NCBI GenBank assembly: GCA_965247115.1
Contig: CBDFGR010000003.1
Span: 480,001-544,000 of the forward strand
Reading direction: 5' to 3'
From: Myxococcota bacterium
Lineage (GTDB): Bacteria; Myxococcota_A; UBA9160; SZUA-336
DNA: 64,000 nucleotides
Part shown: positions 1,195-34,382 of the stretch, in pieces
How the letters are laid out: each line of letters begins with the position of its first letter
How positions within the stretch are numbered: position 1 is the stretch's first letter
Translations under genes and position numbers: made by a program
Notes under the pieces: generated by a model
Seen by the model: only the letters and a program-made list of their open reading frames with translations
The model's database searches: none
What the model was told of the DNA's origin: nothing

Positions 1195-2052
1195 TCAGCC
1201 GCGCTCCGCCACCAGGGTCTGCAGCCGCGCCCACTCGTCGAGGTAGCGCGCGAGGTGGGACCGGTCGGCCTGCCGACTCTCCGTGTGCAGAAGCTCGCGG
1301 AGGCGCTCCTGCTCCAGGGCGTACTCGTCGCTTGTGAAGTGGCCACCGAAGTGCGCGAGCCGCAGCCACAGCAGATAGGTCGTGAGCGCGTCGAACTCGT
1401 TGTACTGCACGATCTTCGCGAGCTCGCCGTCGAGCCACAAGCGCGCGACCTGGCTTCCGTCCACCTCCATCTTGCCCGGGATTCCGGACTGGGTCGCGAG
1501 CTCGTGCAACGACGGCGTTCCCCTGCCAAAGCCAGCGAGAATTCGCTTCAGGTCCACGTTCCAATCGCTGCTGCGAGCGAAGTAGTCAACGCCCTCCCAG
1601 GGCCGCTCTGGCCGCTCGCAGAAAGCCGCCGAGCGCAAGCCAAGAATCGTGCCGCGCTGCAAAAGCAGCTTGAGGTCCGAGTCGATCGAGTTGAAACCTA
1701 CCAGCTGCGGTCGGCGCTGACCGACGGCGTCGAGAAAGGTGCTGACGATGTGGGCTTCCGTGCACTCGTCGTCGGAGGACGGATCGCGGGGCAGGGACAG
1801 CAGGTACAGGGTCACCCCTGTGTCGGTGACGCGCCTCTCGACCGCCGCGATCGAGACCACACGACTGACGGCCAGCTTGAGAAAGGGCGTGGGATCCTCC
1901 GGCGTCGCTCCGCCCCGTTGCCACATGAGCTTCATGATCTCTTCGGGATCGGTCACGGAGTCCGGCACATCGTAGAGCAGACGCCCCGCCAGGGGGTCCG
2001 GGATCCACTCAGCGTCGAAGGCCCACACTCGCTCGGCGACGTACTTGATCAT
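1195..2052 (-). CDS. 3'-5' exonuclease related to the PolB exonuclease domain (DEDD)
   Basis: ExoI FDAEW, ExoII LVGFNSIDSDL and ExoIII YNEFDALTTY motifs; SLHELA..GIPGK segment typical of this family. Confidence 0.85.
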   Translation of the reverse strand: MIKYVAERVWAFDAEWIPDPLAGRLLYDVPDSVTDPEEIMKLMWQRGGATPEDPTPFLKLAVSRVVSIAAVERRVTDTGVTLYLLSLPRDPSSDDECTEAHIVSTFLDAVGQRRPQLVGFNSIDSDLKLLLQRGTILGLRSAAFCERPERPWEGVDYFARSSDWNVDLKRILAGFGRGTPSLHELATQSGIPGKMEVDGSQVARLWLDGELAKIVQYNEFDALTTYLLWLRLAHFGGHFTSDEYALEQERLRELLHTESRQADRSHLARYLDEWARLQTLVAERG

Positions 2053-2136: not shown

Positions 2137-2541
2137 CTAGGGACTGGCAGCGACGGAGACCGCGAGCCCTAGACGACCCGCGGCACTCATTGCGCTCAGG
2201 CCATCTTCCCAGCGCGTGTCCGCGTCGGCGCGCAGCGTGATGGCAGACGCGTGCGAGTCTGCGAGCGCCTCTTCCAGGCCTCGGAGTCCGCCGGCGATGC
2301 GCCGATCATCCAGCCAGACCTCGGGCTCCCCGGCAGACCTGGGGCGCAGCGTGACATTCAGCGCCGCCGCGTCGGCGCTTCCCAGTGCGTTCGCACTGCT
2401 CTTCGGGAGCTCGATCGGCGGCAGCGTGGTCTCCTGTGCGTGCGACACCAGCCAGACGATCGCCACCATGAGCGCGGCCATGGTGAGGAGCATGATGTCG
2501 GGAGCTCCCTCCAGACCCGTACCGGGATTCCAGCGGCGCAT
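2137..2541 (-). CDS. ExbD/TolR-like biopolymer transport protein
   Basis: ATG at 2541 overlaps the upstream stop. Single TM with the conserved Asp (APDIMLLTM), IELPK motif and C-terminal ITLRADADTRWEDGLSAMSAAGRLG. Confidence 0.8.
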   Translation of the reverse strand: MRRWNPGTGLEGAPDIMLLTMAALMVAIVWLVSHAQETTLPPIELPKSSANALGSADAAALNVTLRPRSAGEPEVWLDDRRIAGGLRGLEEALADSHASAITLRADADTRWEDGLSAMSAAGRLGLAVSVAASP

Positions 2542-3293
2542 CAAACGCGCACCTCGCGGACGGGGAGTGCGCTGTCGAGTCGCCGCCACAGAACGTCGCG
2601 GATCCTGGCGTGCCACTCGTCGGGCACAGCTCGGACGAGCTCGAGTCGCAGTGCTTCGGGCTGACGCGCCCGTAGCGCCAGCACCAGCGCCTCGAGCCCC
2701 GCAGCATCGTCACCGAGCGCATTTCCCTCCAGCTCGAAGCTCACTCCTCCCGCGCTCCGCTGGACCTGCACGCGGGACCACGCGGGGTTGAGCGTGGCGA
2801 TCACGAGCGTGGCGATCTGCAGGCCCAGACCCAGGAGCGTGGAGGTCATGGCCGCTCCCAGACCCGCCAGCAGGACGGGAAGGCGCGAGAGAAAGTCGCC
2901 TCCCCCGAGCGCATCAAAGGCAAAGCTCAGACCCCAGACGGTTCCGCAGAGCCCGAGCGCGGCGAAAAGCGGCGCGAGCTGACCCAGCTCTGGTCGTACC
3001 GGAGAGGCCGGCGGCCCGTGACCGTGGCGGGTCCGCAGGGCCCGGGCGGCAAGCCAGCCCACCCGCAAGGCAACCAGGAGCATGGGGACCCAGACCGGCC
3101 CCAGTCTGCCGTTCAGAGCGTCGACCAGGTGAACACCCCCCCGGGCCAGCTCGGTCGCCGAGCCAAGCGCAGGTGCCTCGGGCCCCACGCGCAGCGCGAG
3201 CACGCCGAGACCCCCGAGCACCGCGCCCAGAGCCGCAGAGCGCAGCAGGGGTGCCAGCCACGGGCGGGCCAGCGACAGGGCATCGGCGCTCAA
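2541..3293 (-). CDS. MotA/TolQ/ExbB proton-channel family protein with extra C-terminal domain
   Basis: APLFAALGLCGTVWGL and GLGAAMTSTLLGL match the ExbB/TolQ TM2-TM3 signatures. Likely TTG start at 3293 overlapping the upstream TGA; the ORF track start is 3365. Confidence 0.8.
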   Translation of the reverse strand: MSADALSLARPWLAPLLRSAALGAVLGGLGVLALRVGPEAPALGSATELARGGVHLVDALNGRLGPVWVPMLLVALRVGWLAARALRTRHGHGPPASPVRPELGQLAPLFAALGLCGTVWGLSFAFDALGGGDFLSRLPVLLAGLGAAMTSTLLGLGLQIATLVIATLNPAWSRVQVQRSAGGVSFELEGNALGDDAAGLEALVLALRARQPEALRLELVRAVPDEWHARIRDVLWRRLDSALPVREVRV

Positions 3294-3670
3294 CGCGAGC
3301 CCCCGCGGACTCGAAAGACCTCCCCGGCGAGTCCCTTTCCCGGCGCGGGGATGAGACCACTCCACTCCAGCTCGTTCGCGAGCAGCAGCGCGCCCAGGCG
3401 GTCCCGCTCGAGCCCGTGCGGGAGTGTCGTCGTGTGCAGGCGAGCGGGGAGCAACGGGCTCGACGAGCAGGCCACAATGCCGTGCTCGGCCTGCACCAGC
3501 TCGAGCAGCGCGTTTGCGGGCGGCTCCTGCGTGAACCAGTCATGGACTGATTCGACCACGATCGCACGCTGCCAGCCGCGCTTGCCGTTACATGATACGG
3601 TGTCAGCAGTCGCGGTCGACGCCGAGAGCGTCAGCAGCCCTGCCAGGCCAAGTACTCCGATTCGGATCAT
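3290..3670 (-). CDS. Secreted hypothetical protein
   Basis: ATG at 3670 with GAGGAGAGG RBS; Sec-type signal peptide MIRIGVLGLAGLLTLSASTATA; two Cys. Confidence 0.7.
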   Translation of the reverse strand: MIRIGVLGLAGLLTLSASTATADTVSCNGKRGWQRAIVVESVHDWFTQEPPANALLELVQAEHGIVACSSSPLLPARLHTTTLPHGLERDRLGALLLANELEWSGLIPAPGKGLAGEVFRVRGGSR

Positions 3671-3696: not shown

Positions 3697-4656
3697 TCAG
3701 CGGCAGTCGCCCCACTCCACGCAGTCATCGAAGCCATCGAGCGGGTCGGCGGACGCGGTGGTGCCGGAGAACGCCTCCTCTTCGATGTCTTCCAGGACGC
3801 GCCGCGTGGAGTCCTCGATGTCGAGGTCCGGGAGCTCGAGCCCCCGGATCGCTCCGAGCCGCGCAAAGTGAAGCCTCAGCATCTGGTTCTGGGCAGCCAC
3901 CTGGAGCAGCAGGCCCTGGTGATCGAGGGCCCCGCGCAGCGCGCGCGCCTGGTCGATCAGCGAACGGACCACAAAGGTGCGTTCGCGCACCAGCTCGACG
4001 GTCAGCCGGATGCCTTCGGAGGCTTTCGCCCGTCGCAGGTTGCGGTTCAGCACCCGCGACGTCGCCCAGAGGGCCCGGAACCGCGGGTCGTCGCGTGTGA
4101 GCGTGCCCCACTCCTCGAGCACGGCCAGGGCGATGCCTGTTCCCTGCTGCAGCGACCGGAAGGCGGCCTCCGCCTGTACTTCGTTCCCGCTCTGCTCGAG
4201 TCGACCCGAGTGTTCCAGCGCCAGGGCCAGCTTCTCCAGATTCTCGAGGATCGCGCTGCCGTGGACGTCGAAGGAGCGGATCGCGTCGAGGTCGGCAGCG
4301 TGCCGCTCCGCAAGCGCCTCGAGGTAGCGAGACTTCACCTCGATGCGATGCTCCTCCATCACTCGGGCGGCCGGCGAGTCGGGCTCCCGTTGCTCGGGCT
4401 GGAGCTCGCGCCGCTCACGCTCGATGGTGTCGAGCTCCTCCTCGATGCCGGAGATACGGGACTCGGTGAGGGCCCGTCGCGCCTCGATCTCGGTGGACGA
4501 GCTCTGCAGCTCCTCGTAGTGGTCGCTGATCGCCCGGTTCAAGCTGTCGATCTGGTCCAGCGTCTCCTCGTCAAAGGGCACCGCGGGGGCACCCGTCGCA
4601 AGAGAGGGGGTCGTGAGCAGCAGCGCGACGAAGCAGCTGAGCGTCTTGTGGAGCAT
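3697..4656 (-). CDS. Secreted coiled-coil hypothetical protein
   Basis: ATG at 4656 with AGGAGG RBS; signal peptide; long E/L/R-rich heptad-like helices; C-terminal CxxWGDC. Confidence 0.75.
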   Translation of the reverse strand: MLHKTLSCFVALLLTTPSLATGAPAVPFDEETLDQIDSLNRAISDHYEELQSSSTEIEARRALTESRISGIEEELDTIERERRELQPEQREPDSPAARVMEEHRIEVKSRYLEALAERHAADLDAIRSFDVHGSAILENLEKLALALEHSGRLEQSGNEVQAEAAFRSLQQGTGIALAVLEEWGTLTRDDPRFRALWATSRVLNRNLRRAKASEGIRLTVELVRERTFVVRSLIDQARALRGALDHQGLLLQVAAQNQMLRLHFARLGAIRGLELPDLDIEDSTRRVLEDIEEEAFSGTTASADPLDGFDDCVEWGDCR

Positions 4657-4713: not shown

Positions 4714-5256
4714 TCAAGGAAGCCCGCGAGCGCGGTACTCCCGCTCGTAGCGCAGCACGCGCGCGATATAGGAACGAGTGCTCGTCGGCACCGACGCAAG
4801 TCCGCGCCCTGCGCGTTCGGGTCCCGCGTGGTAGGCGGCCAGCGCGAGCCTCACGTTTTGGAAGCTCTCGAGCTGGTCCGCGAGGTAGCGCGCGGCGCCG
4901 TCGAGGTTCTGGGCGGGGTCGAACGGATCGCGCACCGCGAGCGCGTCCGCCGTCTTGGGCATCAGCTGGCCCAGCCCCTGCGCCCCGGCGACCGATACGG
5001 CCTTCGGATCGAAGCCACTCTCCGTGCGCACCAGCGCCGCCAGTAGCGAGCTCGAAAGACCGTGGCGTCGGGCGGCCGTGCGGATCTCCAGAGCAAAGGG
5101 CACGTGCACGGTGGGCGCGACGACGGGTAGCCACTGGCCCCGAGCGATGCGCTGCAGACGCGCCAGCGCCGCGCGGTCAGACGCGTGCGCCGGCGCTGAC
5201 AGGCCCAGGACCAGGAGGATCCCGACAGCGAAGAGGCGGAGAGGGATGAGCCTCAT
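4714..5256 (-). CDS. Lytic transglycosylase (SLT domain)
   Basis: ESGF catalytic Glu, AxSxAGAQGLGQLMP, DPAQN..GAARYL, ALAAYHAG and YI..V motifs; signal peptide. Confidence 0.95.
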   Translation of the reverse strand: MRLIPLRLFAVGILLVLGLSAPAHASDRAALARLQRIARGQWLPVVAPTVHVPFALEIRTAARRHGLSSSLLAALVRTESGFDPKAVSVAGAQGLGQLMPKTADALAVRDPFDPAQNLDGAARYLADQLESFQNVRLALAAYHAGPERAGRGLASVPTSTRSYIARVLRYEREYRARGLP

Positions 5257-6038
5257 GTGCGCTCCGCCGCGGAGAGATCGATCCGCAGCCCGAGCTCGCG
5301 CTCACTGCCGTCGCGTAGCGCGACCGTGAGGACCTCGCACTGAAGTCTGCCGCCGCGCAGCTCGTAGGCCACGTCGACGCGCAGCAGCGAGTCCGAGCTC
5401 ACGCCGAGCTCGCGCAGACGCCGATCGAGGGCGCCGAGCAGCGCCGCGTCCAGGCTTGCCGGTGGCAGCAGCACGACTCGAGAGACGCGCGCACCATAGC
5501 GCTCCCGGCCGAGCGCGAGAGCGCTCTGCAGGTGACGGGTGACGTCCCGCGGCCAGCGGCTGAGCTCTTCCCGGAGACCTTCGGCCCCGAGCAGGCCGCT
5601 GCGCGGGTCCACCTCGGCGAGCGCTCGACGCGCCCGCGGGTCGTACACGTAGAACGCGCCCCCCACCTCGAGGACAGCCTCCCGGTAGGCGGCGAAGCCG
5701 ATCCGGATGTAGGTGGCCCGCAGTCGGGGGAAGGCCCCCGCGCGCAGCAGGGCGTCCCCACGCGCGAGGGCCTCGGGATCAGGGCGCAGCGCGGCAGGTT
5801 CGCTCTCCGCCCCGATCTCTGGCTTTGCGAGCTCGGCCCTGGGCGCAGGCGTCTCCCGCACCGGTGGCGCGAGCTCAGGCTCGCTCGGCTCCGCAAGCTC
5901 GATGCGCGCGATCTCGATCGCGCGCACAGCAGCAGTAGCGACGCTGGGCTTGCTGCGCTGCGCGCCGCCAGCGCGGAAGAGCAAGATCACGCTGAGCGCG
6001 ACCGCTATCGTGACCGCCCACTCGAGCGTGCGCCTCAC
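5253..6038 (-). CDS. Membrane-anchored protein with Pro/Glu-rich linker (TonB/TolA-like topology, unknown C-domain)
   Basis: GTG at 6038 overlaps the upstream TGA. TM WAVTIAVALSVILLF, linker EPSEPELAPPVRETPAP, then a globular domain. Stop overlaps the SLT start. Confidence 0.65.
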   Translation of the reverse strand: MRRTLEWAVTIAVALSVILLFRAGGAQRSKPSVATAAVRAIEIARIELAEPSEPELAPPVRETPAPRAELAKPEIGAESEPAALRPDPEALARGDALLRAGAFPRLRATYIRIGFAAYREAVLEVGGAFYVYDPRARRALAEVDPRSGLLGAEGLREELSRWPRDVTRHLQSALALGRERYGARVSRVVLLPPASLDAALLGALDRRLRELGVSSDSLLRVDVAYELRGGRLQCEVLTVALRDGSERELGLRIDLSAAERT

Positions 6039-6954: not shown

Positions 6955-7005
6955 TGGCTTCCTCCTGCCGGTCGGGGCTCTCTACCAGCCTCACCCTGGC
7001 GCTCT

Positions 7006-7086
7006 GGCGTTTCGACGCCGCCCGCCACCGGCGCGGGATGCTCGAGTGAGCCCGCGTTTCGGGACTGTCTGAAACACGCAGCTCAC
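7006..7086. promoter_or_regulatory. Structured divergent intergenic region: hairpins and a repeated GCGTTTCG
   Basis: GGCGT-TTCG-ACGCC hairpin at 7006-7019; GCGTTTCG at 7007-7014 and 7054-7061; imperfect dyad GTGAGC (7046-7051) / GCTCAC (7081-7086) enclosing GCGTTTC...GAAACACGC. Confidence 0.35.
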
Positions 7087-7195
7087 GCCGCGACGAGACC
7101 ATGCTGCAACGGTTAACAGCTCCAGCGCTTCGGTCGGGGCCGAATACCCGCTACAGGCCGAGCGCCTAACTGTGTGAGACTTGGAGGACCCGCCC

Positions 7196-8626
7196 ATGCC
7201 AGACGCAGAGAGGCAGCCTGACCTTCGAGATCAGCTTGCCGGAGCCGCCCAGGGAATCGCAGCGAAGCTGGTCGGAGATCCACAGCGGAGAGCCGAGAGC
7301 CTCGGCGAGATCTTCCTCGCCTGCGAGCAGACCGTCCGCGAGCACCCGGACGAGTGCCGCGAGGCGCTTGCAGTCGGCACCCTCGAGAGCTTTCTCTTGC
7401 CCTGCGTCCGGGCCAGCTTGCGCCGTGGCGAACCGTCGCCGCCGCGCGGCGGCTGGCTCGGGACCTTCATGAGCGTCGACGGGCGCCCCATCGAGCCCGA
7501 CGAGGCAGAGGATCCCGGTAGCCTGGACCGGGGCGCACTGGAGCTGAGTGAGCGGGCACTCCACCGCGCCATTTCAACCGCGGCAGCGGAGGGCAACGAG
7601 ACGTTGCTGCGCAACCTGCGCTGGTATCAGGAGCGGCTCGCCCACAAATCGTACGACGCCATCGCTCGAGAACAGGGGCGGATCCCGGCGACGGTGCGAA
7701 CAGGCGTGGCACGCGCCAGAAAGTTCGTGCTGCGCGCCGTCCACGAGCTCAGGAGCGCTCAGCCCGCACCGCTCTCCGGAGAAGCTCCGGCGGAGCTCGA
7801 GCCGCTGCGACAGCTCTGGGTAGACCAGGAGCTCGACGCGCTGGCCCGGGAGATGGAGCGGACCCGAGCCACGCACTCCGACGACGCCCACTGGCTCAAC
7901 CTGGCTGCACTGCTGGCAGGGGAGCGGGGCACGAAGGAGCAGGCGGAGGGGCTCTTCGAGAAGGCGCTCGTGTTCGCTGATGCTCCGAGTGTGCGCGGAC
8001 GGATCCTGAACAACCTGGGCAATCACGTCGAGGACCTCGGCGATGCCGACTCGGCGGTCGCGTACTGGTTGCGCGCCACGCAGCTGGTCCCGCACGCTCC
8101 TGCACCCCTCGTAAACCTGCTCGCGGCCGCGTCCGGGCGGAAGGACTACCCGGCTGCTCAGCACTACATCACCCAGCTCGGCGATCTCTTGAGCTCGGGT
8201 CACCTGCGGTCCGAGGAGAGGTCCTACCTGTGTCGCCGCCTGGCCGAGCATCCGAAGCTCGCCTGGCTGCGCGATACGGACGCGTGGCGCGTCGGTCCCG
8301 CCCGCTGGATCCGAGCCGCGCGCGCAGCTCGGTCCTTGACGGTCGCGGCCGCGGCAGCGGCAACTGCCGCGCTGGCCCTGCTCGTCCTGCTGACCCCGCA
8401 GCCCGCGGCGGCCTCAAGCCCGTCCGAGGCGGTGCTGCAAACCGTCGCTGCGGCGACGCTCGGCGACAGCATGAGCTTCCAGCGCGGCCGGGGCGGCGAC
8501 TCGATGGGCAAGCCACCGAAGAAGCTCCGCCCGGACGACGTGCACCTGCGGCACATGTTCCTCGCCGGCGACTCGATGGGTCGGAGCGGCTCGGGCAGAG
8601 GAGGCTCGCGACCGCGCGGCTCCTGA
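7196..8626 (+). CDS. Sigma-70 region-4-like HTH + TPR regulator with C-terminal signal-peptide-like segment and GDSM repeats
   Basis: GGAGG RBS then ATG at 7196. SYDAIAREQGRIPATVRTGVARARK is an ECF-type region 4 HTH. TPR motifs HWLNLAALL, ILNNLGNH..DLGD..SAVAYW and PLVNL. Then LTVAAAAAATAALALLVLLTPQPAAA and GDSM x3. Confidence 0.75.
   Translation: MPDAERQPDLRDQLAGAAQGIAAKLVGDPQRRAESLGEIFLACEQTVREHPDECREALAVGTLESFLLPCVRASLRRGEPSPPRGGWLGTFMSVDGRPIEPDEAEDPGSLDRGALELSERALHRAISTAAAEGNETLLRNLRWYQERLAHKSYDAIAREQGRIPATVRTGVARARKFVLRAVHELRSAQPAPLSGEAPAELEPLRQLWVDQELDALAREMERTRATHSDDAHWLNLAALLAGERGTKEQAEGLFEKALVFADAPSVRGRILNNLGNHVEDLGDADSAVAYWLRATQLVPHAPAPLVNLLAAASGRKDYPAAQHYITQLGDLLSSGHLRSEERSYLCRRLAEHPKLAWLRDTDAWRVGPARWIRAARAARSLTVAAAAAATAALALLVLLTPQPAAASSPSEAVLQTVAAATLGDSMSFQRGRGGDSMGKPPKKLRPDDVHLRHMFLAGDSMGRSGSGRGGSRPRGS
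8462..8581 (+). repeat. Three coding repeats GDSM(S/G)
   Basis: ggcgacagcatg at 8462, ggcgactcgatgggc at 8495 and ggcgactcgatgggt at 8567, all in frame with the 7196 CDS. Confidence 0.85.
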
Positions 8627-8661: not shown

Positions 8662-9489
8662 ATGAGTTCCGGGGGGGAGAGCGCGGCCCTGGCTGGGTGG
8701 CGAGCCAGGCTCCACGAGATCATCTTCGAAGCGGACACTCGCGCAGGCAAGGCCTTCGACGTGGGACTGCTGCTCACGATTACAGCCAGCCTCGTCGCGG
8801 TCAGCCTCGAGACGGTGTCGCCTTACGGGACCGAGCACGGGCGCACGCTGCGACTCCTGGAATGGGGCTTCACGCTCGTATTCAGCGCCGAGTACGCCTT
8901 GCGGCTCTTCTGTGTGCAGCGCCCGCTCGCCTACGCGCGCAGCTTCTACGGGATCGTGGACCTGCTGGCCATCTTCCCGACGTACCTGAGCGTGCTGTTC
9001 CCCGGTGCGCAGTCCTTCCTGATCGTTCGCGCGCTGCGCCTGCTGCGCGTGTTCCGGATCTTCAAGCTGGCCCGCTTCGTGGGCGAGATGGAAGTGCTGC
9101 GGACCGCCCTGCGCCAGAGCCGGCGCAAGATCACCGTGTTCGTGATCACGCTGCTCACGATTGTCGCCATCATGGGCGCCCTGATGTACCTGATCGAGGG
9201 TGACGAGTCCGGATTCACGAGCATCCCGCGCGGGATGTACTGGGCGATCGTGACCATGACCACCGTCGGATACGGGGATATCTCGCCCCAGACGCCGCTG
9301 GGACAGGTCGTAGCCTCTGTCTTGATGGTGATGGGCTACGGGCTTCTTGCCATTCCCACGGGGATCTTCTCCGCCGAGCTGATCGAGCTGACGCGGAAGC
9401 CGGTCAGCACACAGGTCTGTCCCAGCTGCTCGGCGGAAGGCCACGACGCCGATGCCGTCTACTGCAAATTCTGTGGCGTGGGTCTCTAG
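8662..9489 (+). CDS. Voltage-gated potassium channel (6TM) with C-terminal zinc ribbon
   Basis: S4 RALRLLRVFRIFKL; filter TMTTVGYGD; CPSC...CKFCG. Confidence 0.92.
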   Translation: MSSGGESAALAGWRARLHEIIFEADTRAGKAFDVGLLLTITASLVAVSLETVSPYGTEHGRTLRLLEWGFTLVFSAEYALRLFCVQRPLAYARSFYGIVDLLAIFPTYLSVLFPGAQSFLIVRALRLLRVFRIFKLARFVGEMEVLRTALRQSRRKITVFVITLLTIVAIMGALMYLIEGDESGFTSIPRGMYWAIVTMTTVGYGDISPQTPLGQVVASVLMVMGYGLLAIPTGIFSAELIELTRKPVSTQVCPSCSAEGHDADAVYCKFCGVGL

Positions 9490-33237: not shown

Positions 33238-34382
33238 CGGTTCCCGACCAGGAGCTGGGCCCGTACGACACCGAGAAGCGCTTCACGGGTCACCGCGCCC
33301 ACCAGTCGATCGTCGGAGACCACCGGCAGCTGGTTCACGCCGAGCTCGACCATGCGCGAGAGTGCCACGTGGCCGCTGTCCTCGGGTGAGACCACGGCGA
33401 GCTGGTCGGCTCCAAGCATGACCCGCAGAACCGGAGTCGTGGCCCGCTCGGTCGGCGGCGTCTGCGCGAGCTCCCGCAGCGTGACGAGGCCCCGCAGCCG
33501 ACCAGCTGCGTCGACCACGAAGAACGTGCGTCGGCCCTGTCGAAGCACCATGCCCTCGAGCACCTCGGCCACGCTCTCGTCCCCCGAAAGCAGCGCCTCG
33601 GTGACCGGAACCAGCGTCTCGCGCACCCAGACCCGGGCCAGCGCACGCTGCATCGCCTCCTGTCCCACCGTGGCACGCGATGCACTCAGCAGGAACCAGC
33701 CGATCAGTACGAACCAGATGCCCCCGACGAGCTGGCCTCCCAGGACGGCGCTCAGCGCTCCCACTCCCATCAGGGTCCAGGCGAAGATCGCCCCACATGC
33801 GCCCGCGACGCGGGTCGCCCGCGTGAAGTCGCCCGAGATCGACCACAGGATGCCGCGCAGCACCCTGCCACCGTCCAGAGGGAAGCCGGGAACCACGTTG
33901 AAGGCCGCGAGCAACAGGTTGATGCGCCCGAGCCAGCCGAGCCCGCGACGGACGAGGCCCCCCTCCGCCCCAACCCCGGTTGCGAGGCCGAGGAAGAAGA
34001 GGCCGAGCAGCACGCTCACCAGCGGTCCCGCCACGGCCACGACGATCTCTTCCCGAGGCCGCTTGGCCTCCGAGCTCAGCTCCGCCACCCCACCGAACAG
34101 GAACAGGGTGATCGAGCGCACCCGAATGCCGAGACGCTGCGCCGTCAGGCTGTGGCCGAGCTCGTGAAGCAGGATGGATGCGAAGAACACCAGGCTCACG
34201 AGCGCCGCCGCGAACCAGGCATCGATCCCCAGCACGCCCTCACCCGCAGCGAACTGCTGGGCGAGCGAGAACGTGACGAGCGCAAAGATCAGCAGCCAGC
34301 TGTAATCGACCAAAAGCTCGATTCCGGCCACCGTTCCGAGCTGCCAGCCCGTGCGCCGAACCGTGCCGCCACCCTGCGCCAT
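33234..34382 (-). CDS. Site-2 protease (M50) with CBS pair
   Basis: HELGH, AGPLVS and FNVVPGFPLDGGR motifs; C-terminal CBS repeats. Confidence 0.93.
   Translation of the reverse strand: MAQGGGTVRRTGWQLGTVAGIELLVDYSWLLIFALVTFSLAQQFAAGEGVLGIDAWFAAALVSLVFFASILLHELGHSLTAQRLGIRVRSITLFLFGGVAELSSEAKRPREEIVVAVAGPLVSVLLGLFFLGLATGVGAEGGLVRRGLGWLGRINLLLAAFNVVPGFPLDGGRVLRGILWSISGDFTRATRVAGACGAIFAWTLMGVGALSAVLGGQLVGGIWFVLIGWFLLSASRATVGQEAMQRALARVWVRETLVPVTEALLSGDESVAEVLEGMVLRQGRRTFFVVDAAGRLRGLVTLRELAQTPPTERATTPVLRVMLGADQLAVVSPEDSGHVALSRMVELGVNQLPVVSDDRLVGAVTREALLGVVRAQLLVGNR

Follow-up and report, generated by a model that had tools for sequence, protein, structure and literature searches.

Within a 64,000-nucleotide stretch from a Myxococcota bacterium (assembly GCA_965247115.1, contig CBDFGR010000003.1, positions 480,001 to 544,000 of the forward strand; the whole stretch is referred to here as the window), a single open reading frame (ORF) encodes a regulator in which a domain resembling an extracytoplasmic function (ECF) sigma factor, a tetratricopeptide repeat (TPR) domain, an internal signal-peptide-like segment and a disordered tail carrying repeated GDSMG cores are joined in frame. 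We estimate a probability of about one half that this gene constitutes a one-gene receptor-plus-pheromone circuit, in which the tail would be exported, cut off, trimmed, re-imported and bound by the TPR domain of its own protein. The reading draws chiefly on a core that is retained across the family in an otherwise hypervariable tail, and on a core-less clade whose departures from the family invariants all fall at five TPR residues.

In the proposed circuit, the internal segment would thread the tail through Sec while the sigma-TPR part stays in the cytoplasm; signal peptidase I (SPase I) would then cut after the P-x-A-x-A site, freeing the tail into the periplasm, and an RseP-type protease would clear the signal remnant and so release the sigma-TPR part from the membrane. 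Periplasmic proteases would trim the tail to about (G/A)GDSMG, and the peptide, returning via an oligopeptide transporter, would bind the TPR groove and switch the sigma domain, more likely off than on. This switch would set the expression of the gene itself, of a divergent operon encoding a lipoprotein, an SLT transglycosylase and ExbBD, and of small secreted His/Arg-rich proteins. A preliminary description of this DNA had offered a receptor-plus-pheromone gene and a membrane-tethered sigma-like factor released by cleavage as two alternatives; these would not be exclusive, as the circuit outlined above needs membrane release by cleavage and then peptide control. In a diderm, the peptide could report periplasmic retention to the same cell instead of cell density.

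The fused frame and its repeated core

A lost stop codon or a chance fusion is ruled out by the conservation of the fusion and by the uninterrupted frame in the contigs of other assemblies. Contigs from three runs (X1, X4 and X5, of which X1 is possibly the source of this DNA) span positions 8300-8340, where the preliminary description had proposed to check for a lost stop, and differ there by substitutions only, with no stop or frameshift; the sole insertions, in X4 and X5, amount to a net 6 bases near 8611-8614. Three short pieces from RNA run X19 lie inside 7434-8187, which is not proof of transcription. In one related locus (L002, G002:C12), several genes including the regulator are frameshifted in one assembly, indicating assembly errors there.

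A protein search in which 8000 candidates were scored returned 88 relatives with 47-99% identity and lengths of 261-833 aa. A profile built from 55 relatives then yielded 89 proteins (P0001-P0089) in a word-based search, again with 8000 candidates scored; the weakest match had an E-value of 2e-95 and none was weaker, so the family is tight, and no distant relatives with other cores appeared in that search. The named relatives come from metagenome-assembled genomes labelled Myxococcota, Deltaproteobacteria or Proteobacteria. Look-alikes in the Atlas all scored below 0.9, and none of the relatives lies in a viral contig. Within the class, a profile of the N-terminus matched 12 of 225 genomes, 11 of them in the bacterium's own family.

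Using the Trp motif to locate the tail, 87 of the 89 proteins could be scored (P0085 and P0089 were dropped). A GD[ST]M core was present in 81 of them, as a single copy in 31, two in 44 and three in 6, and was missing from the remaining 6; with a stricter anchor (86 proteins), the count was 127 [GAS]GD[ST]M[GP] cores, compared with 0.01 when the tails were shuffled. Between proteins of 47-100% identity the core shows next to no change. Tail length varies from about 25 to 85 aa. The open stretches of at least 30 aa in all six frames of the 5.17-Mb genome contain 23 GDSM, of which this tail accounts for three; [GA]GD[ST]M[GP] has two instances in them, and the tail holds both. Among 26 core copies from 16 loci, all four Gly codons, GAC and GAT, and TCG, TCC and AGC are used, which argues that selection acts on the peptide and led us to reject the core as a DNA or RNA motif. 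The h-region lies 10-62 aa from the first core and successive cores are 11-27 aa apart, a variability that fits a short linear signal rather than a domain. Of 134 core copies, 123 have G or A at position -1 and 83 have K or R at position +5, which suggests that these residues mark the ends of a trimmed peptide of about (G/A)GDSMG. GDSM is reminiscent of motifs in S24/S26 peptidases, SGNH enzymes, GxSxG elbows and phosphopantetheine sites; we set aside a catalytic or phosphopantetheine role because of the disordered context and variable copy number.

No stand-alone propeptide gene with the core was found in 301 genomes. A profile of the tail retrieved three proteins of 34-196 aa: two were fragments of the fusion, and in the third a P0012-type tail followed an unrelated N-terminus. 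The 11 weak matches of this profile in the 301 genomes held no GDSM core, one of them having an unrelated GETMP. Protein P0092 (189 aa) carries an unrelated hydrophobic N-terminus ahead of a P0012-type signal segment and two cores, and is probably a mis-assembly.

The segment preceding the tail has the build of a signal peptide throughout the family: its n-region is net positive in 81 of 81 proteins, its uncharged stretch measures 13-28 aa (median 16), and P-x1-4-[AGSVT]-x-[AG] follows in 62 of 79, compared with 23% when the next 30 residues are shuffled. By eye, secreted proteins of these genomes start with signal peptides built in the same way. Cleavage is predicted after Ala406, and we infer a topology with the N-terminus inside and the tail outside. 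The genome encodes one SPase I, three M50 protease loci and two family-5 solute-binding proteins (PF00496), neither of the latter adjacent to the regulator. One M50-family gene lies in the window itself, at about 33783-34196 (-), some 25 kb from the regulator.

In its N-terminal part the protein looks like a complete, though divergent, putative ECF sigma factor with regions 2 and 4. Comparison of residues 1-190 with a profile of 11 ECF-like sigma factors from the same genome (3 of 14 proteins with region-4 matches having been dropped as non-ECF) gave a match at P 94% and E 2e-7, with a score of 51 where 40 shuffled controls reached 19 at most. For region 4 alone the match was at P 82% and E 1e-5, whereas region 2 alone was marginal (score 19.7 at E 0.008, the highest among 40 shuffled controls being 17.1). 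In Foldseek, the model of residues 1-190 had ECF sigma factors at all of ranks 1-9 over about 180 columns, the best at E 0.037 and none below 0.001; VIA gave Z of about 7 to region 4 of SigW, SigL and SigE, a level common for that tool. Pfam PF08281 fell on the helix-turn-helix (HTH) at E 0.042, below the cut-off, and PF04542 had no match in the ORF at E up to 0.1. About 35 residues separate the helices ending at 77 and starting at 112, a short linker with no region 3. Within it, G86, W87, G89 and R97 of the GGWLG..DGR motif are at least 97% invariant and mostly of low model confidence (pLDDT) in both models; W87 and G86 of this low-confidence loop are altered in only three proteins.

All elements that the preliminary description had listed for the fusion, from HTH and TPRs through the hydrophobic segment to the repeat tail, are thus present in frame, including the basic, hydrophobic and PQPAAA parts of the signal-peptide-like anatomy, and 81 of 87 relatives keep both the hydrophobic segment and the core; a tail split off as a separate ORF was not found among the proteins and genomes searched. 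Two of its statements need amending. The HTH does match sigma region 4, but that account was incomplete given the region-2-like part ahead of it, and the three GDSM copies do exist around a conserved core, but the GDSMS copy is limited to the closest relatives, one or two copies of the GDSMG type being the family norm.

Loss of the core and five TPR residues

The TPR assignment made in the preliminary description was borne out by a PF07719 match (E 0.0028) and by best fold matches of the domain to TPR proteins; similarity to NprR is generic to TPRs (E 0.21). In the Asn-containing helices (LNL, LNNLGN, VNL) that it had pointed out, the Asn residues occupy ordinary TPR-consensus positions and are alone no evidence for peptide binding.

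More informative are the proteins that have lost the core. Across 90 aligned proteins, 9 of them without a core, 76 positions are at least 97% invariant among the 81 core-bearing members. Five core-less proteins (P0031-P0034 and P0038) form one clade, sister to core-bearing P0013 (Shimodaira-Hasegawa-like approximate likelihood ratio support 99 in a quick tree). This clade keeps 71 of the 76 invariants, including all those of the sigma domain and all structural ones, and all 15 of its changes fall at Q211, N235, R269, N273 and N276, requiring at least 9 separate substitutions; among core-bearing proteins the same five positions differ in 1 of 405 cells. By alignment, N235, N273, N276 and R269 occupy positions 6, 6, 9 and 2 of TPR helix A, which we take to line the groove. 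The simplest reading is that the five residues exist to bind the core.

In the DNA of one core-less member (P0033, locus L007), the stop is genuine and no core lies downstream, and an intact copy (L011) is present in the same genome (G014). The ratio of nonsynonymous to synonymous substitution rates (dN/dS) between the two is 0.22 for the sigma domain and 0.11 for the TPR domain, a sign of continued purifying selection, so the core-less copy is not a decaying pseudogene. That core-less, groove-mutated copies are still conserved would fit an active form free of peptide, which is why we favour a peptide that switches the sigma domain off. The L007 copy (L007:9917-11248, G014:C14) is divergent from an XRE-HTH/cupin gene and, by eye, near a trehalase-like gene; it has no promoter-like element and looks like a signal-blind paralogue in other use. 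Two members of the clade, P0031 and P0032, could be truncated at the ends of contigs; of the four core-less proteins outside the clade, P0085, P0089 and P0093 look chimeric or frameshifted. Complex prediction with TPR residues 193-376 and tail residues 430-466 scored 0.03 against a mark of 0.32, with controls not folded, a value that speaks neither for nor against the pairing.

Divergent operon, upstream elements and putative targets

Upstream of the regulator and divergent from it lies an eight-gene envelope operon, which the preliminary description had thought plausibly controlled by the regulator (Table 1). A tie between the two is supported by the operon's distribution and by conserved sites between them: of the 225 genomes, 8 have strong matches to operon gene 1, each being one of the 12 that carry the regulator, and three further matches are weak and partial. 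The operon adjoins the regulator in six genomes, is unlinked in G005 and G020, and was not found in regulator-positive G009, G013 and G021 (92, 97 and 58% complete) or G048. This co-occurrence is a linkage without a statistic, and kin genomes are not independent. The core is kept in G009 and G013, so it could have a partner that the operon does not encode. For five of the eight genes no Pfam or NCBIfam family was found above noise, and four of these also had no credible PDB-sequence match; the Atlas gave only 0.77 for the coiled-coil protein. The operon may be an undescribed proton-driven envelope machine.

Table 1 Features of the regulator, the divergent operon and the region between them (window coordinates)
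Feature	Position	Strand	Basis or remark
Fused regulator ORF, 476 aa (sigma-like, TPR, signal-peptide-like segment, GDSMG tail)	7196..8626	+	single open frame
ECF sigma region-2-like helices, divergent, residues 8-77	7217..7426	+	in-register profile match, weak alone
GGWLG..DGR linker motif between regions 2 and 4, residues 85-97	7448..7486	+	conservation
Sigma region-4-like HTH, residues 112-187	7529..7756	+	profile match, structural match
TPR domain, residues 199-351, incl. Q211, N235, R269, N273, N276	7790..8248	+	fold and profile matches
Invariant Trp-rich motif ahead of hydrophobic segment, residues 357-371	8264..8308	+	alignment
Internal signal-peptide-like segment	8312..8413	+	n-region 8312-8335, h-region 8336-8392, c-region 8393-8413 (PQPAAA)
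Disordered 70-aa tail, predicted exported	8414..8623	+	pLDDT <50 at residues 420-472; hypervariable in alignments
Core copy 1, GDSMS, closest relatives only	8462..8476	+	
Core copy 2, GDSMG, context RG-GDSMG-KP	8495..8509	+	
Core copy 3, GDSMG, context LA-GDSMG-RS, preceded by FLA	8567..8581	+	
Promoter-like CGAATA-N18-CCTAA upstream of regulator	7141..7169	+	in 11/16 upstream regions, fixed spacer
Palindrome GTTTCR-N8-YGAAAC, candidate operator	7056..7075	.	10/16 regulator upstream regions, one with 10-base spacer
Promoter-like GAAAC-N11-13-GG(T)TGA upstream of operon	6990..7013	-	9/11 operon upstream regions, loose pattern
Operon gene 1, lipoprotein-like, 170 aa	6442..6954	-	no family found
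Operon gene 2, N-terminally anchored, 136 aa	6035..6445	-	no family found
Operon gene 3, membrane anchor, Pro-rich linker, conserved C-domain	5253..6038	-	TonB-like layout by eye, no family match
Operon gene 4, SLT lytic transglycosylase	4714..5256	-	PF01464 E 7e-25
Operon gene 5, helical coiled-coil-like, signal-peptide-like start	3697..4656	-	no family found
Operon gene 6, small two-Cys protein, signal-peptide-like start	3290..3670	-	no family found
Operon gene 7, MotA/TolQ/ExbB family	2541..3365	-	PF01618 E 4e-8
Operon gene 8, ExbD/TolR family	2137..2616	-	PF02472 E 1e-5

A divergent operon of similar build (lipoprotein-like, coiled coil, two-Cys, ExbB and ExbD-like genes) stands beside a regulator and a palindrome in G048 (L006:1-2740 (-)), with a weak DUF3450 match on the coiled coil, no SLT gene and no detectable homology to the window operon. 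Two other neighbours recur only in the closest relatives (L001 and L002) and are probably outside the system: an ion-channel gene (PF00520) 3' of the regulator at 8662-9489 (+), and a PolB-type exonuclease gene beyond ExbD at 1195-2052 (-).

The upstream elements differ in how well they single out the system. GAATA-N18-CCTAA was found in 8 of 32 genomes of the bacterium's family, all regulator-positive, and in 15 of 213 regulator-negative genomes, near control level; a second site in the own genome, whose spacer has 16 bases, and additional ones in G005 and G048 fall within coding regions and were taken as chance. The GAAAC element is weak alone: even when the pattern is tightened, the own genome contains 9 matches to it. 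For the palindrome, 21 sites (control 2) are listed in 10 regulator-positive genomes against 4 sites (control 1) in 5 negative ones, a modest enrichment in which two of the 21 are probably one site on overlapping contig ends. In five genomes it lies about 60-100 bases upstream of small secreted-type His/Arg/Tyr-rich proteins of no known family (L072:6842-7237 (-), at G000:C2 near 210335, and L076, L081, L092 and L125), whose similarity is 43% over 96 aa between G000 and G001, 32% at E 0.024 for G007, and 55% over 64 aa between G013 and G020. The remaining palindrome sites adjoin unrelated genes. At L088 (G020:C77 near 54182), a palindrome and a GAAAC..GGGTAG box precede a membrane-anchored helical protein, unrelated to the operon genes by BLAST, which is a possible further target.

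Weighing the readings and comparison with known systems

That the core is a ligand of the TPR domain of its own protein, whether it returns after export or acts in cis, seems to us rather likely on the sequence evidence. The full circuit must be interpreted more cautiously, as several points weigh against it. The changes in the TPR domain come from one clade and one tail loss, and the loss of any input could relax the groove; their rate fits neutral drift (synonymous divergence, dS, 0.4-0.5), so that action in cis and in trans are not separated. Their concentration among 13 polar TPR invariants, a set drawn after seeing the data, has P 7e-5 relative to all 76 invariants and 0.024 relative to the 25 polar ones. 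Core-less P0046 keeps all 76 invariants, with a recent or artefactual frameshift being possible. Since region 2 is only marginal alone, sigma activity is not certain, and 17 of 79 proteins have no P..AxA match, some being misses of the pattern and others longer, anchor-like segments. No conserved peptide transporter or protease gene lies beside the regulator in the ten loci with ORFs listed. The genome encodes Omp85, hence the host is diderm, as had been thought probable, and a released peptide must cross the outer membrane to reach neighbours. Outside the core the tail is unalignable among relatives, and it is disordered in the full-length AlphaFold model. Lastly, RRNPPA receptors as a rule respond specifically to their own pheromone (PMC11343458), yet here the core shows no diversification across the family.

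One alternative is that the protein monitors export in cis: the core of an unexported tail would fold back onto its own TPR domain and switch the sigma domain, and normal export and cleavage would discard it. An invariant core, the lack of a linked transporter or protease and the outer-membrane problem would then be explained, the joint loss of core and TPR residues is fully compatible, and the putative targets are envelope and secreted proteins. However, the two conserved contexts of the core (a basic or hydrophobic residue at -2, with K or R often at +5) look like processing sites, the variation from one to three copies matches known propeptides (PMC11343458), and the AlphaFold model leaves the tail unordered; we therefore consider such a monitor unlikely.

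A second alternative, to which we would give similarly low odds, is that the tail stays attached in the periplasm and its GDSMG docks onto a partner there, perhaps the TonB-like product of the operon with ExbBD as its power source; this contact would gate the SPase cut, and the TPR groove would bind something else in the cytoplasm. Regulated SPase cleavage at an internal AxA followed by RasP is documented for RsiV (PMC9044953), release of a fused sigma/anti-sigma by Prc and RseP is documented for IutY (PMC8999054), and the operon, found only with the regulator, encodes ExbB, ExbD and SLT. Yet a tail that has no fold and carries its core 10-62 aa beyond the h-region makes an ineffective lever for the cleavage site, the core is retained where the operon was not found, and there is no direct account of why core loss frees five TPR residues alone.

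Least probable is that the tail is a modified or effector peptide precursor (RiPP-like, that is, a ribosomally synthesized and post-translationally modified peptide, or a Ser-modification tag) with no TPR feedback, or that the N-terminus is a DNA-binding repressor or anti-activator: the invariant Ser of GDSM, the GG or AG ahead of the core, which recalls double-glycine leaders, the palindrome suggestive of a dimeric DNA binder and the weakly matched region 2 speak for these options, but no conserved modifying enzyme or ABC exporter was seen in the loci listed, the segments between cores are unalignable, the TPR residues track the core, and the fixed-spacer two-box element is almost private to the regulator gene, as for an autoregulated ECF sigma factor.

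Returning to the one-gene circuit, we can tentatively postulate a wider form of it, in which a family-wide secreted GDSMG pheromone, cut from its polyprotein by housekeeping SPase and RseP, serves cell-to-cell signalling and switches a private envelope machine, the core-less paralogues being signal-blind versions rewired to other genes. If the circuit is real, peptide signalling would extend to a diderm lineage where it has not been looked for, with a pheromone precursor that is the receptor's own C-terminus and a sigma-like output, and the one-gene design would fix the receptor:signal stoichiometry by construction. Intracellular TPR peptide signalling has so far been described from Firmicutes, as two genes (PMC9765709, PMC10075063). 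Such a fusion would escape detectors that need a small adjacent ORF (PMC10075063) and ECF catalogues that need a region-2 match. Even on the alternative readings, this would be an undescribed mode of sigma factor regulation, and the system is directly testable: it comprises a single gene and offers a candidate ligand of six residues, five residues that may form the pocket, and candidate sequences for the promoter and the operator.

In literature searches that mostly left subscription papers outside, GDSMG returned unrelated work only, and nothing matched a Gram-negative RRNPP system with a fused propeptide or a fusion of sigma factor, signal peptide, RseP processing and pheromone; titles and abstract openings on Myxococcota ECF factors with TPRs, or on Gram-negative peptide quorum sensing, held nothing on this architecture. 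Within that literature the architecture appears undescribed, and further TPR-bearing ECF groups in the supplement of PMC7826278 may bear on its novelty.

Among ECF groups, ECF42 is alike: its ECF core continues at the C-terminus into a TPR extension of about 200 aa (here residues 199-371) that is thought to bind a partner (PMC8999054, PMC7826278). The look-alikes in the Atlas include ECF42-like clusters (PF20239), which score 0.80-0.81, as leads only. PF20239 itself had no match in the ORF at E up to 0.1, and ECF42 is not described in these sources with a signal-peptide segment or repeated core. A YCII-domain gene occupies position -1 of ECF42 (supplement of PMC7826278); none was seen there in the loci considered, nor was there a YCII match among the scanned neighbours in the window, and in the window and in L001-L004, L011 and L041-L044 the place upstream is taken by the divergent lipoprotein gene.

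RsiV of Bacillus subtilis and Clostridioides difficile, which acts on sigma-V, likewise has an internal A-x-A just outside its membrane segment and is cut by SPase and then RasP (PMC9044953), but it is a separate anti-sigma factor whose outside part binds lysozyme. In the present protein a short disordered repeat takes the outside position, and what lies inside is the sigma-like domain itself. IutY (ECF243) and groups ECF48, ECF52 and ECF53 also join a sigma domain and a membrane segment in one ORF, with proteolytic release; they carry anti-sigma, zinc-finger or folded outside domains, and none is described there with a cytoplasmic TPR domain and repeated peptide (PMC8999054). A folded periplasmic sensor or anti-sigma domain of the IutY type is absent here, the tail being disordered and alignable only at the core. 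DdvA-DdvS of Myxococcus xanthus (PMC11506125) combines an ECF sigma factor, a membrane segment and TPRs, and the DdvA structure 8rot is a generic TPR match to our domain at Z 13.1. There, two proteins are involved, while here the TPR domain precedes the membrane segment of a single one. The TPR-CHAT part of DdvA is periplasmic.

The closest functional parallel would be the RRNPP systems (Rap-Phr, NprR-NprX, PlcR-PapR, AimR-AimP), which have a cytoplasmic TPR receptor and a short, unstructured propeptide with repeated cores behind a Sec-type signal sequence, a place taken here by the signal-peptide-like segment; in these systems the peptide returns to the cytoplasm through an oligopeptide permease. 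They are recognised by a separate propeptide of 10-100 aa, its secretion by Sec, a receptor of about 250-500 aa, TPRs that recognise the mature peptide, and the two genes being neighbours (PMC10075063); RRNPPA propeptides consist of a signal peptide followed by 1-4 repeated cores (PMC11343458), and the matches reported were in Firmicutes (PMC9765709). The regulator agrees in size (476 aa as a whole, about 375 aa for the cytoplasmic part) and in having TPRs. It lacks the separate small propeptide, which is in frame in 81 of 87 proteins, and the pair of neighbouring genes, as there is one ORF; its ECF-sigma-like output, diderm host and invariant core also set it apart. With two of the five defining features missing, we suggest that it works like an RRNPP system without being a member of that family.

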